32,000 bases of DNA, from positions 30,001-62,000 of the forward strand of contig JAEOSH010000005.1 of the NCBI GenBank assembly GCA_016840465.1, in the 5' to 3' direction. The notes under the pieces are model-generated. The model made no database searches, had not been told where the DNA came from, and worked only from the letters and a program-made list of their open reading frames with translations. Source of the stretch: Candidatus Baldrarchaeum yapensis. GTDB taxonomy: Archaea; Asgardarchaeota; Baldrarchaeia; Baldrarchaeales; Baldrarchaeaceae. How positions within the stretch are numbered: the stretch's first letter is position 1; each line of letters starts with the position of its first letter. The translations under genes were made by a program, and so were the position numbers. Positions 23,580 to 26,587 of this stretch are shown in pieces.

Positions 23580-24518
23580 GTGATCAAGTTCCAGTGTGGA
23601 GTGGCCGTGAAAAGGTCAAAGTTTGGAGAAAGTAAGGAGCTACTTATGAGGAAGACCTTTGAAGTTTTGAATCTGGCACTTCGATCGGGACTCGATTATC
23701 TGTGCTTCGATTATGAGTGGAAGAAATATAATCTAACATGTGAGGATCTCGCTACCATCCTTGAAGAAATTGACAGCAATGATGGAAAACTCACAGTTAT
23801 CTTCACAGTTGCTTCTCGTGCAAATGAGTTCCTCATCGAAGGATCCGGTAAGGCAAATGTAGATTCCTTATTACAATTACTAGATTCGTATCCGGATCTA
23901 CTAGCTCTGAACTTGGTGGCTGGGAATCCGGCATACTTATCAGAGGAGGAAAGAGGTCGGTCTGGATCGAGGACTCTTTACATACTTGGCGCTTATGTTG
24001 CCAGTCACGCTCCTACAAATGCAAAAATTCTCGTGGGTACAGAAAACGTACTTAAAACTGCCGTGAAACTGGCAGCGGAATTCGGATACATACCGTTTCA
24101 TTTGTTTTCAGACAAATTGTCCACCGAGTTGAACTATACGTTCAGTAGAACTAGTGGGGTTAGTGCATGTTATGTCCCCTATTCTTGTGTGCTTTCGGAA
24201 AGAGAAGTTGCATTGAAGATATGGAGGTATGTTTTACGGAGAAGTAGCGCATGGGAGATGCTTAGATCACAAAATATAGACCCGAAGATTTTAGTGACTG
24301 CGTTTGAGAACGGTAAACATGAGAAACTGAGTGACCATGCATGGAATGCATTTGTGTCAGTAATGAGATACTTTGTGATATATGGCGACGACCGGGCATT
24401 TGATCGAGAACTAGGGGATTACATCAGCAGTGGCATGCGCCTAGTAATAGGGTTACCGTTAGGGGATTTCGAGAAGGAAGTGCCTCAACTTGCGAGAATC
24501 ATGAGGCGAGAGTCATAA
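23580..24518 (+). CDS. Divergent luciferase-like (LLM/Mer-like) TIM-barrel oxidoreductase-like protein
   Basis: C-terminal half parallels Mer as recalled (KILVGTENVLKTA; SACYVPYS; EMLRSQNIDP; FVIYGDD...YISSGMRLVIGLPLG). SD GGAGGTGAT at 23559-23567; the start could also be ATG 23646. Confidence 0.55.
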   Translation: MIKFQCGVAVKRSKFGESKELLMRKTFEVLNLALRSGLDYLCFDYEWKKYNLTCEDLATILEEIDSNDGKLTVIFTVASRANEFLIEGSGKANVDSLLQLLDSYPDLLALNLVAGNPAYLSEEERGRSGSRTLYILGAYVASHAPTNAKILVGTENVLKTAVKLAAEFGYIPFHLFSDKLSTELNYTFSRTSGVSACYVPYSCVLSEREVALKIWRYVLRRSSAWEMLRSQNIDPKILVTAFENGKHEKLSDHAWNAFVSVMRYFVIYGDDRAFDRELGDYISSGMRLVIGLPLGDFEKEVPQLARIMRRES

Positions 24519-24890
24519 ACGAAGTCTTTTTATTTCTCCATTCACTTTGGGAATTCTTATTTCCAATATGCCGTTTCTAAAAGTTGCCTTGGCGGATTTT
24601 ATGTTACCCGGTGGTGGTATTTCTATCATTTTCCTTAGAGTTCCACGGACGAAAACATATAAGCGGTGACCTTCGCCCCTGATATCTATATCTTCCTTCC
24701 GTGCGTCGAGAATTTGTATTATCACAACAATTTCATCGTCCATTTCGAGTAATTCGTATAACTCATTATCGCTTCTTTCTTTAACGCTATCTGCGTGTTC
24801 CACGGGATTTTCATCGATACCCAGCATTGTGAGTATCGAGTTAAATAATTTTAAGAACTCATCGAATATGTCATGCCTTTTCTTTCCCAT
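24513..24890 (-). CDS. Small heat-shock protein (Hsp20/alpha-crystallin domain)
   Basis: KKRHDIFDEF, ELLEMDDEIVVIIQI..ARKEDIDI, SAKATFRNGILEIRIPK. Confidence 0.85.
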   Translation of the reverse strand: MGKKRHDIFDEFLKLFNSILTMLGIDENPVEHADSVKERSDNELYELLEMDDEIVVIIQILDARKEDIDIRGEGHRLYVFVRGTLRKMIEIPPPGNIKSAKATFRNGILEIRIPKVNGEIKRLRL

Positions 24891-24998
24891 TAACAACACC
24901 TTAAGAGGTTATTATTCGATATGCACAAAAACTTTTTGTTTCTCAATGCAAAAAAGGAGTTTTTGCCATTATATTGGTGTTTTGTAATACCTAATACT

Positions 24999-26567
24999 TC
25001 AAATGCCTAATTCTTGCCTTATTTTCTGCACAATTCTTCCTTCCCTTATAAGGTTCGATACGACCTCAAGATCTCGTGATAATGACCTATCGTCCTCCAA
25101 TGCACTGACATGTCTTCTTATCTCTTCATAAGCTATCTTTGTACCACTCCCTAATAGTTCCTTGCCTCCTCTCAGATCGATTCCCTGCGTTGCTGCTATC
25201 ATTTCAAGAGCTATTATGTAGCGTGTGTTACTTATTATTTGAGCAGTTCTTCGCGCTGAAACCAGCCCCATGCTAACAACGTCCTGATTTTCGGCATTAG
25301 TGGGTATGGACTTTATGCTTATCGGGCATGCAAGGCCCTGATTTTCAGCAACCAACGAAGTTGCTACGTACTGCACACCCATGAACCCACATCTAAGCCC
25401 CGGGTTTGATGAGACTAAGAATGGCGGTAAACCTCTATTTGTCATTTCATTCAAGAGAATAGCAAGTCGTCTTTCGGATAATAGGCCAACCTCCGTCGCG
25501 GCTATTGCTGCAAAATCCATGGCCATGGATATGTGTTGCCCATGAAAGTTTCCACCGTGGTACACCTTTTCGTTGTCTGCATCGATCAGTGGGTTGTCCG
25601 ATGCTGAGTTCAGTTCTGTCTCCACAATGCTCCTTACGAATTTTAGTGCATCAAGTGAGGCTCCTAGCACCTGCGGTGTACATCTGAGGCTATATACGTC
25701 TTGGAATTTCTCCTCCATCTTCTCGACTGATCCCTTTACTTCCTTTATGAAATCTTCGTACCTCCTGACGAGTTTACTTCCATCGAGGAGAGTTTTTATG
25801 TACCTTGCGATTTCCCTTTGTCCCTCATGAGGTCTGACATTATGTATGAAATCCTCAAACGGATCAATGAACCCCCTCATAGCCTCTATTGTTAATGCCG
25901 CAGCAATGGCCGCATTCTTTATTAACATCTCGAGGTCATAAACCACAAGCGCTGCGATTCCTGTCATTGCAGATGTTCCGTTGATCAGAGCAAGCCCTTC
26001 CTTATAGCTTAATTTTAGTGGCTTTAAATTCTCGTTTTTCATAGCTTCTGCTGCTTTTACTATTTTCCCACGATATTCGACAAACCCTTCTCCCATCATT
26101 GTTAGAGCCATATGCGCTAATTGCGTGAGGTCCCCACTCGCTCCAACCGATCCTATCTCGGGAATTACTGGATGGATTTTCCTGTTAAGCATTTCAATTA
26201 AGAGTTTCAGGACCTCCGGCCTGACACCGGAATGCCCCATAGCAAGAACGTTGGCGCGTACAAGCATCATTGCTCTTACATATTCTGTGGGAAGAGGATT
26301 CCCCACTCCGGATGCGTGACTCCTTATTAAATTCTCTTGCAGAACTTCGGCATCCTCAGCCGGTATCACGCAGCTTATCATCGGTCCGAATCCTGTGGTT
26401 ATTCCGTACACTATTTTCCCTTCATCAACGAATTTCCTAACAGTCTTCCGGCATTTCTCAACTCTCTTCAACGCCTCATCGGAAAGCATTACATTTGCGT
26501 GGTTCCTTGCAACTGCAACTACGCGCTCTATCGTTAAACTCTTACCATCCACTACCACGGCGCTCAA
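24999..26567 (-). CDS. MIO-dependent aromatic amino acid ammonia-lyase/aminomutase (HAL/PAL/TAL/TAM superfamily; TAM/TAL-like motifs)
   Basis: YGITTGFG, ENLIRSHASG, MIO triad GASGD, GLALINGT, YSLRCTPQV, DNPL, GGNFHGQ, NQDVVSMG. The TTG at 26567 follows SD GGTGAT; the ORF is open to 26576. Confidence 0.93.
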   Translation of the reverse strand: MSAVVVDGKSLTIERVVAVARNHANVMLSDEALKRVEKCRKTVRKFVDEGKIVYGITTGFGPMISCVIPAEDAEVLQENLIRSHASGVGNPLPTEYVRAMMLVRANVLAMGHSGVRPEVLKLLIEMLNRKIHPVIPEIGSVGASGDLTQLAHMALTMMGEGFVEYRGKIVKAAEAMKNENLKPLKLSYKEGLALINGTSAMTGIAALVVYDLEMLIKNAAIAAALTIEAMRGFIDPFEDFIHNVRPHEGQREIARYIKTLLDGSKLVRRYEDFIKEVKGSVEKMEEKFQDVYSLRCTPQVLGASLDALKFVRSIVETELNSASDNPLIDADNEKVYHGGNFHGQHISMAMDFAAIAATEVGLLSERRLAILLNEMTNRGLPPFLVSSNPGLRCGFMGVQYVATSLVAENQGLACPISIKSIPTNAENQDVVSMGLVSARRTAQIISNTRYIIALEMIAATQGIDLRGGKELLGSGTKIAYEEIRRHVSALEDDRSLSRDLEVVSNLIREGRIVQKIRQELGI

Positions 26568-26587
26568 TCCCATCACCGATCCACAAG

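Follow-up and report, generated by a model that had tools for sequence, protein, structure and literature searches.

The MIO gene and its product

We analysed a stretch of 32,000 nucleotides (the window) from the Asgard archaeon Candidatus Baldrarchaeum yapensis, namely positions 30,001-62,000 of contig JAEOSH010000005.1; coordinates below are window positions unless a contig or locus is named. The minus strand of this window carries a gene of the family of aromatic amino-acid ammonia-lyases and aminomutases that depend on a 4-methylideneimidazole-5-one (MIO) electrophile, and this gene and its product, P0001, are the subject of the present work. Databases would name P0001 histidine ammonia-lyase (HAL, HutH), which is likely a mis-annotation; the evidence against its being HutH is good, and we argue below that it may instead be a tyrosine ammonia-lyase (TAL).

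The gene (24999..26573, minus strand) was recognised from the open reading frame (ORF) listing, the Pfam family PF00221, an AlphaFold2 model and a fold search. It is an uninterrupted ORF that begins either at an ATG, the likelier start, which gives a protein of 524 amino acids, or at an alternative GTG seen in the ORF listing (26576, minus strand; ORF 24999..26576). An earlier sequence-only reading of the same DNA had placed the gene end at 26567, which lies 6-9 nt inside the likely start, and had given no strand. Its recognition of an archaeal MIO enzyme holds in view of the intact 524-residue ORF, the Ala-Ser-Gly triad and the match to PF00221 (aromatic amino-acid lyase; E 6.4e-194, 465 of 466 profile positions covered), and the motifs that it quoted (GFGPMI, LQENLIRSH, ELNSASDNP, NFHGQ, GLPPFLVSSNPGLRCGFMGVQYVATSLVAEN and NQDVVSMG) are all present in the translation.

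Active-site residues separate P0001 from canonical HALs

Residues were related to Pseudomonas putida HAL numbering through the 1gkm alignment of a canonical Asgard HAL, and to the numbering of SgTAM, the SgcC4 tyrosine 2,3-aminomutase (TAM) of Streptomyces globisporus, through a 3kdy alignment. Function-assigned anchors were, for the TAMs, SgcC4 from plasmid SGLP1 with its nonribosomal peptide synthetase (NRPS)-type neighbours and a second Streptomyces TAM; for the TALs, the TAL of a pyp-pcl-tal operon and a Dyadobacter FlxA equivalog (809 bits on NF053541); and for the HALs, four HutH genes in hut operons from Enterobacter, Haloferax volcanii, Thermus and Peptoclostridium.

The general catalytic residues of MIO enzymes (the ASG triad, Y56, N198, Q291, Y294, R297 and F343) are all intact in P0001. 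The precursor of the electrophile, Ala145-Ser146-Gly147 (26133..26141, minus strand, as are all residues given here), is invariant in the alignment of the nearest homologues, and the inner-loop catalytic base Tyr56 (26406..26408) aligns with Tyr53 of P. putida HAL and Tyr63 of SgTAM. The stretch Gln291...Tyr294...Arg297 (25683..25703), aligned with HAL Gln277, Tyr280 and Arg283, conserves all three of these carboxylate- and amine-binding residues.

The pocket residues are of the TAL/TAM type. The sequence-only reading had pointed out NQDVVSM where HALs have QEDHVSM, and the alignment bears out this register, with HAL Q413-E414-D415-H416 standing against N429-Q430-D431-V432 of P0001. Within the motif NAENQDVVSM (25269..25298), Gln430 thus replaces HAL Glu414, Asn426 replaces Ser410 and Val432 replaces His416. 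The canonical HALs of our alignment have Glu at the 414 position without exception (110 of 110), and the ENQDV motif of P0001 recurs unchanged in the pyp-pcl-linked TAL. Across the whole alignment of 277 sequences, nine columns separate the 110 canonical HALs from 59 TAL/TAM sequences; at these P0001 has the TAL/TAM residue seven times (S201, L303, H339, T405, N426, Q430 and V432), neither residue twice and the HAL residue never. Since two of the nine columns helped to define the two groups, the independent count is over seven columns, where P0001 is in the TAL/TAM state at five, in neither at two and in the HAL state at none.

Other pocket positions bear on the choice between lyase and mutase. 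The 'selectivity switch' pair Ser85-His86 (26316..26321) does not discriminate, because HAL, SgTAM and FlxA-type TALs have it in common. In the pair Pro64-Met65 (26379..26384), Pro64 aligns with Glu71 of SgTAM, and proline is also what the TAL anchors have there. Further along, in Met398-Gly399-Val400-Gln401-Tyr402 (25368..25382, by alignment), Gly399 is Ile in HALs and Tyr402 matches SgTAM Tyr415; Met398 occupies the GF-A-G position, where the pyp-linked TAL anchor likewise has Met and the FlxA-type anchor Gln. In the TAM clade of our tree, the Glu71 position is always Glu and the GF-A-G position always Ala. That Glu71 matters functionally was reportedly found by Cooke and Bruner in 2010, and in SgTAM the residues His93 and Tyr415, which correspond to His86 and Tyr402 of P0001, are said by Christianson et al. 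in 2007 to bind the phenol hydroxyl. P0001 thereby shows the TAL feature of Asn429-Gln430 (NQD) in place of the HAL QED, coupled with a polar His86/Tyr402 pair.

Family models and predicted fold

As the sequence-only reading had expected, automatic annotation points to HAL: the HutH models are the top NCBIfam matches of P0001 (NF006871, 607 bits with a cut-off of 524; TIGR01225, 593 bits with a cut-off of 539), and NCBI and JGI give the name histidine ammonia-lyase to the closest database homologues that carry the same Gln signature. However, the HutH cut-off is a weak test of membership, because SgcC4, a proven aminomutase, also passes NF006871 (525.3 bits, just over 524). Both HAL models moreover pass every sampled Gln-type archaeal protein at 590-640 bits and look like a systematic source of HAL over-annotation. 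The TAM model TIGR03832 gives P0001 538 bits (cut-off 501), compared with 593 for a Nitrospirota TAM named by PGAP and 1023 for SgcC4; the AdmH-type phenylalanine aminomutase model TIGR04475 gives the same 538 bits, and the BagA TAL model NF041222 gives 385 bits, under its cut-off of 1000.

In a sequence search of the PDB, the best solved relative of P0001 is SgTAM (424 bits, against 341 for P. putida HAL), whereas a canonical Asgard HAL gives the reverse order (318 for SgTAM and 408 for P. putida HAL). The AlphaFold2 model of P0001 is confident, with a predicted local distance difference test score (pLDDT) of 89.8 and a predicted template modelling score (pTM) of 0.91, and a fold search with this predicted structure likewise ranked SgTAM first (TM score 0.93), followed by AdmH, the TAL RsTAL and HALs.

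Phylogenetic placement outside the TAM clade and probably apart from the HALs

Trees were inferred with FastTree from 277 sequences and with IQ-TREE (LG+G4, 1000 ultrafast bootstrap (UFBoot) replicates) from 83 sequences, and topologies were tested on 52 taxa; the FastTree and IQ-TREE results concur on the main points. Glu-type sequences form one clan, which unites the canonical QEDH HALs, all HutH anchors and an 'NFEDF' type common in Bathyarchaeia. The split between this clan and all Gln-type sequences, with P0001 on the Gln-type side, has a UFBoot of 97 in the 83-sequence tree. There P0001 is a long lone branch amid a grade of uncharacterised metagenomic lineages with the signature 'PM..SH..MGxY..NNQD', a grade that, on these sequences, sits between the HALs and the TALs/TAMs, and its sister in the maximum-likelihood (ML) tree is the TAL clade, made up of His-Leu/pyp-type and FlxA-type TALs. 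The TAM clade without P0001 has a UFBoot of 95-99, and forcing P0001 into the SgTAM clade worsens the log-likelihood (lnL) by 107 and is rejected by the approximately unbiased test (p-AU 0.006). The tree thus excludes P0001 from the SgcC4-type TAMs; for a position apart from the HALs it gives support short of proof. Set against the sequence-only reading, the phylogeny leans towards its separation of P0001 from HutH and goes against its grouping with the aminomutases.

The NFEDFVSM subfamily within the Glu-type clan is an observation in its own right. It comprises 62 of the 277 sequences (P0021, P0026-P0042 and others; locus L003), belongs to Bathyarchaeota/Bathyarchaeia where a name is given, is annotated as HAL and forms a well-supported clade of its own beside the canonical HALs; it keeps Glu414 and replaces His416 and Gln413 with Phe.

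The host has a MIO gene without a urocanase

The host assembly (2.27 Mb, 96% complete) has a single PF00221 gene, on contig C1. Neither hutU, hutI or hutG nor NRPS genes lie in the 32-kb window, as the sequence-only reading had stated. Its question of a hut pathway elsewhere in the genome can be answered for two genes: urocanase (PF01175) has no match in the host genome, and HutI has none above the cut-off (best 49 bits against 298), this genome-wide search having covered urocanase and HutI. The NRPS condensation domain (PF00668) has no match in the genome either.

Relatives of the host look different. In 40 related genomes, 19 have a MIO homologue and 18 of these 19 also have a urocanase, often within a few kb, while the genomes without a MIO homologue have none; the MIO loci inspected among the 19 are Glu-type. 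In this sample of 41 genomes, the host is the one genome that has a MIO gene but lacks urocanase, and this MIO gene belongs to the other active-site class. The four genomes of the same order have no MIO homologue. On a wider scale, 273 of 400 Asgard genomes have one; identity to P0001 reaches about 52% at most, and the 30 loci that match best are all Glu-type.

Some of the MIO genes seen in this comparison depart from the usual pattern. Asgard homologues in frames of 619-635 residues (G014:C36:78447-80153, G024:C28:2898-4625, G023:C3:79199-81022 and G033:C23:7627-9390) match P0001 in two or three segments broken by inserts of about 80-100 residues. At locus L091 (G007:C38:147048-150240), and in many Asgard genomes of family f5, two adjacent divergent MIO paralogues occur, one with QEDHVSM and one with QEDFVSM, and in the latter the LQxxL-SH region was not recognisable in a motif scan.

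Genomic context of the MIO gene

The MIO stop codon is followed by an intergenic spacer (24900..24998, minus strand, read from the sequence) with an oligo-T run (CCTTTTTT) and an A/T-rich stretch, beyond which lies a gene for a small heat-shock protein (sHSP)-like product (24513-24899, minus strand, sequence reading). Because the oligo-T run and A/T-rich spacer follow the stop codon, the sequence suggests that the MIO gene is its own, monocistronic transcription unit, and an operon with the sHSP-like gene is unlikely for the same reason. Upstream, an Ogg-type DNA glycosylase gene is divergent from the MIO gene. The GC content, third-position GC content (GC3) and codon usage of the MIO gene resemble those of neighbouring genes, and it is therefore resident DNA, contamination or recent horizontal import being ruled out by the matching composition. 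The rest of the window is given to housekeeping and to amino-acid and peptide catabolism, including a glycine cleavage system, an M24 peptidase, a penicillin-amidase-family protein, an AOR fragment and an ABC transporter. As a separate observation, the sHSP-like protein has no Pfam match at E 1e-3, and its gene is convergent with a DUF7388 gene (23580-24518, plus strand), the two 3' ends overlapping by 6 nt.

Further along the same contig, 6-21 kb beyond the window end (G000:C1:68088-80613; L269:6088-18613), lie a pair of 2-hydroxyacyl-CoA dehydratase (HGD-D) genes, a DUF362 + Fer4 gene, a 2-oxoacid:ferredoxin oxidoreductase subunit, a 644-residue Oxidored_FMN (old yellow enzyme, OYE) + Pyr_redox_2 protein with the architecture of enoate reductase/FadH, located 15.4-17.3 kb beyond that end, and a divergent class I aminotransferase. 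This cluster fits reductive amino-acid fermentation, and the genes of the contig fit an organism that lives by fermenting peptides and could reduce the product of a lyase. The host genome also encodes a reverse gyrase, for which reason we call the host a thermophile, and an archaeal tRNA-splicing endonuclease.

A putative thermophilic tyrosine ammonia-lyase and its rivals

We see about an even chance that P0001 is a functional, stand-alone, thermophilic TAL of the Gln-type (non-HAL) class; its substrate (tyrosine), the outcome of the reaction (lyase over mutase) and its physiological role are what we infer. In the proposed mechanism, Ala145-Ser146-Gly147 would cyclise to the MIO electrophile; Arg297 would hold the carboxylate of bound L-tyrosine, and His86 and Tyr402 its phenol hydroxyl. 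The inner-loop Tyr56 would then take the beta-proton, and ammonia would leave to give trans-p-coumarate. Such an enzyme could serve the fermentation of peptides or amino acids by releasing ammonia and an acid of the cinnamate type, and the OYE/FadH-type enoate reductase whose gene is on the same contig might go on to reduce this acid. We favour a lyase over a mutase because Pro64 and Met398 are unlike the TAM clade, because there is no context of beta-amino-acid biosynthesis and because the host is thermophilic; temperature and inner-loop flexibility set the balance between mutase and lyase (review, PMC9002059).

Several points weigh against a TAL. The HutH models score P0001 higher (593-607 bits) than the TAM model does (538), and the FlxA TAL model NF053541 gives it only 517 bits, far under the cut-off of 700. 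The Ser-His pair and Met398 are features of HALs too. As for the tree, a topology in which P0001 branches next to the entire Glu-type (HAL) clade is 31 lnL units worse and is not rejected (p-AU 0.14-0.15); the deep branches are short, and the sister of P0001 differs between the 83-taxon and the 52-taxon trees. Its nearest homologues are only 52-54% identical, and no member of the grade is characterised. Finally, the MIO gene has no operon partner, and nothing ties the enoate reductase, 21 kb away, specifically to it.

It is against this background that the alternatives have to be judged. The sequence-only reading had likened P0001 to the SgcC4/CmdF-type aminomutases, and a tyrosine 2,3-aminomutase that makes beta-tyrosine would account for SgTAM being the best solved relative both by sequence and by fold, for a TIGR03832 score above the cut-off and for the retention of the phenol-binding pair as His86/Tyr402. 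Nevertheless, placement in the clade of SgcC4 and the PGAP-named TAMs is rejected at the p-AU of 0.006 given above, Pro64 and Met398 take the place of the Glu71 and Ala found in every TAM-clade member, and SgcC4 itself reaches almost twice the bits on the same model (1023 against 538). The SgcC4 locus has NRPS, adenylation and carrier-protein genes, none of which occur in the window around P0001, the condensation domain is missing genome-wide and a thermophilic setting favours elimination, so that we regard an aminomutase as very unlikely. Of the products that the reading had considered, coumarate from a lyase would fit better and beta-tyrosine less well.

By contrast, the reading had been right to set P0001 apart from HutH, given Gln430 in place of Glu414, the HAL state at none of the nine columns and the missing urocanase and HutI. 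One could still imagine a divergent HAL that has lost Glu414 and makes urocanate outside the Hut pathway, for instance as an electron acceptor. Such an enzyme would suit the HutH models as top matches above their cut-offs, the HAL-like Ser85-His86 and Met398, the tolerated sister position to the HAL clade (p-AU 0.14-0.15) and the spread of canonical HAL over 273 of 400 Asgard genomes. Yet Glu414 is essential in the HALs tested: GkHAL is inactive as E411D, and active-site mutants of P. putida HAL, including those at Glu414, are 1,000- to 20,930-fold slower (PMC11432326). Together with the absence of any HAL-state column, and with a host that has neither urocanase nor HutI, whereas urocanase accompanies the homologue in 18 of the 19 related genomes that have one, this leaves little probability for a HAL of that kind.

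A MIO lyase for another substrate, be it phenylalanine, L-DOPA, another substituted tyrosine or a compound new to the family, is unlikely in our judgement, though it deserves a hearing. P0001 is a long lone branch in a wholly uncharacterised grade, its scores on the phenylalanine and tyrosine aminomutase models are equal (538 bits each), and its pocket of Ser-His plus Met-Gly-Val-x-Tyr matches no function-assigned anchor in the alignment. On the other hand, the polar His86 and Tyr402 at the distal end of the pocket suit a para-hydroxyl better than a bare phenyl ring, and both function-assigned groups in the alignment that combine Ser-His with Gln act on tyrosine (SgcC4, and the FlxA-equivalog TALs, with L077 at 809 bits on NF053541). 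FjTAL probably groups with these FlxA-equivalog TALs. That enzyme is tyrosine-specific (PMC11436776). Decidedly unlikely, finally, is that P0001 forms the entry to a lyase-first branch of reductive aromatic amino-acid fermentation, or that it belongs to an 'SH/MGxY/NQD' grade with a substrate new to MIO enzymes; in such a branch, non-redox deamination of tyrosine or another aromatic amino acid would yield an aryl-acrylate as an electron sink for the enoate reductase.

Significance

P0001 is an uncharacterised member of a well-known enzyme family and not a new kind of enzyme, and its main value lies in an annotation correction and a biochemical target. A whole grade of archaeal and uncultured Gln-type MIO enzymes passes the HutH equivalog cut-off and receives the HAL name, and metabolic reconstructions of Asgard archaea, Woesearchaeota and Syntropharchaeia may for this reason wrongly infer histidine catabolism. 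Characterising one member of the grade would show where tyrosine and histidine specificity parted. The literature searched yielded no account of an archaeal TAL; if the assignment is true, a TAL whose host has a reverse gyrase would be a candidate thermostable catalyst for p-coumarate production, and it would raise the modest physiological question of what use an anaerobic Asgard archaeon makes of p-coumarate.

Comparison with related and characterised MIO enzymes

The proteins nearest to P0001 are metagenomic, HAL-annotated and of the 'PM..SH..MGxY..NNQD' signature (Woesearchaeota NQU79624.1, Syntropharchaeia MHC1582678.1 and others). They share this signature with P0001 at 52-54% identity and differ in having NNQD where P0001 has ENQD, and P0001 forms no stable grouping with any one of their lineages. 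A profile scan with the clade alignment, whose motifs are generic, returned almost solely canonical HALs among the matches listed; a metagenome scan for NNQD[IV]VSMG returned, among the matches listed, mostly His-Leu-type TAL-like genes and four loci of the 52% clade. At these four loci (L096:3002-8147, L105:3947-9295, L112:3-3900 and L158:4882-9188), the MIO gene adjoins genes for a GlcD-like FAD oxidase (FAD_binding_4 + FAD-oxidase_C) and a CCG/Fer4_8 Fe-S protein; in L158 all three run in the same direction, with a 46-bp gap. The surroundings also include genes for an acyl-CoA dehydrogenase, a B12-binding_2 protein and an ADP-forming CoA ligase. Because three of the four loci are syntenic and probably closely related, they amount to about two independent observations. 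Host orthologues of the oxidase and CCG pair (66% and 51% identity) are found on contig C56, away from the MIO gene, in an apparent operon of a nitroreductase, a 225-residue protein without a Pfam match, the FAD oxidase and the CCG protein (G000:C56:17696-21860; L268:7696-11860), and the host genome has at least eight CCG-type paralogues. We did not use this linkage as evidence for P0001, as the pair is unlinked in the host and the other neighbours are non-homologous.

HutH (P. putida 1gkm; Thermoplasma acidophilum 7tqr; TIGR01225) resembles P0001 in its fold, its MIO triad, the equivalents of Tyr53, Asn195, Gln277, Tyr280, Arg283 and Phe329, the Ser-His pair and the equivalent of Met382, and canonical Asgard HALs are 48-49% identical to P0001. 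The differences in P0001 are Glu414 to Gln, His416 to Val, Ser410 to Asn, Ile383 to Gly and Gln198 to Ser, a position in the ML tree that is not within the Glu-type clan (UFBoot 97 for the split) and a host without hutU or hutI. A variant on the HutH side, independent of P0001, is an 'aromatic amino acid ammonia-lyase' in a hut cluster (hutU, hutC, HutD, formimidoylglutamate deiminase and an ABC transporter) on the Klebsiella pneumoniae plasmid pKPC-5501 (L221:3908-5440). It keeps Ser-His and QEDH, but HAL Asn195, Tyr280 and Phe329 are replaced in it by Gly, Leu and Gly. It could be a HutH paralogue that has no catalytic activity or a different one.

Closer in the tree are the bacterial TALs, both the pyp-pcl-linked RsTAL type (PDB 2o6y) and the flexirubin FlxA/FjTAL type (NF053541), which form the sister clade of P0001 in the 83-taxon ML tree. 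The points of likeness are Pro at the Glu71 position, Gly399, the ENQDV motif of the pyp-type TAL and the Ser-His switch of the FlxA type. P0001 is, however, only 40-42% identical to them; RsTAL-type enzymes have a His-Leu switch and Val at 402 where P0001 has Ser-His and Tyr402, FlxA-type enzymes have Gln398 and Phe402 where P0001 has Met398 and Tyr402, and its locus lacks the PYP, coumarate-CoA ligase or pigment-cluster context of the bacterial genes.

SgTAM (SgcC4; PDB 2ohy, TIGR03832) is alike in sequence (424 bits, 44% identity) and in predicted fold (TM 0.93), and shares with P0001 the Ser-His switch, Gln at the HAL Glu414 position, the Tyr415 equivalent, the MIO triad and the full catalytic set. 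P0001 nevertheless falls outside the SgTAM clade (p-AU 0.006), its Pro64 and Met398 stand where SgTAM has Glu71 and Ala, and it has no enediyne or NRPS neighbourhood, in contrast to the SgcC4 locus with its AMP-binding, PCP and condensation genes. P0001, unlike SgTAM, is probably a lyase and not a mutase.

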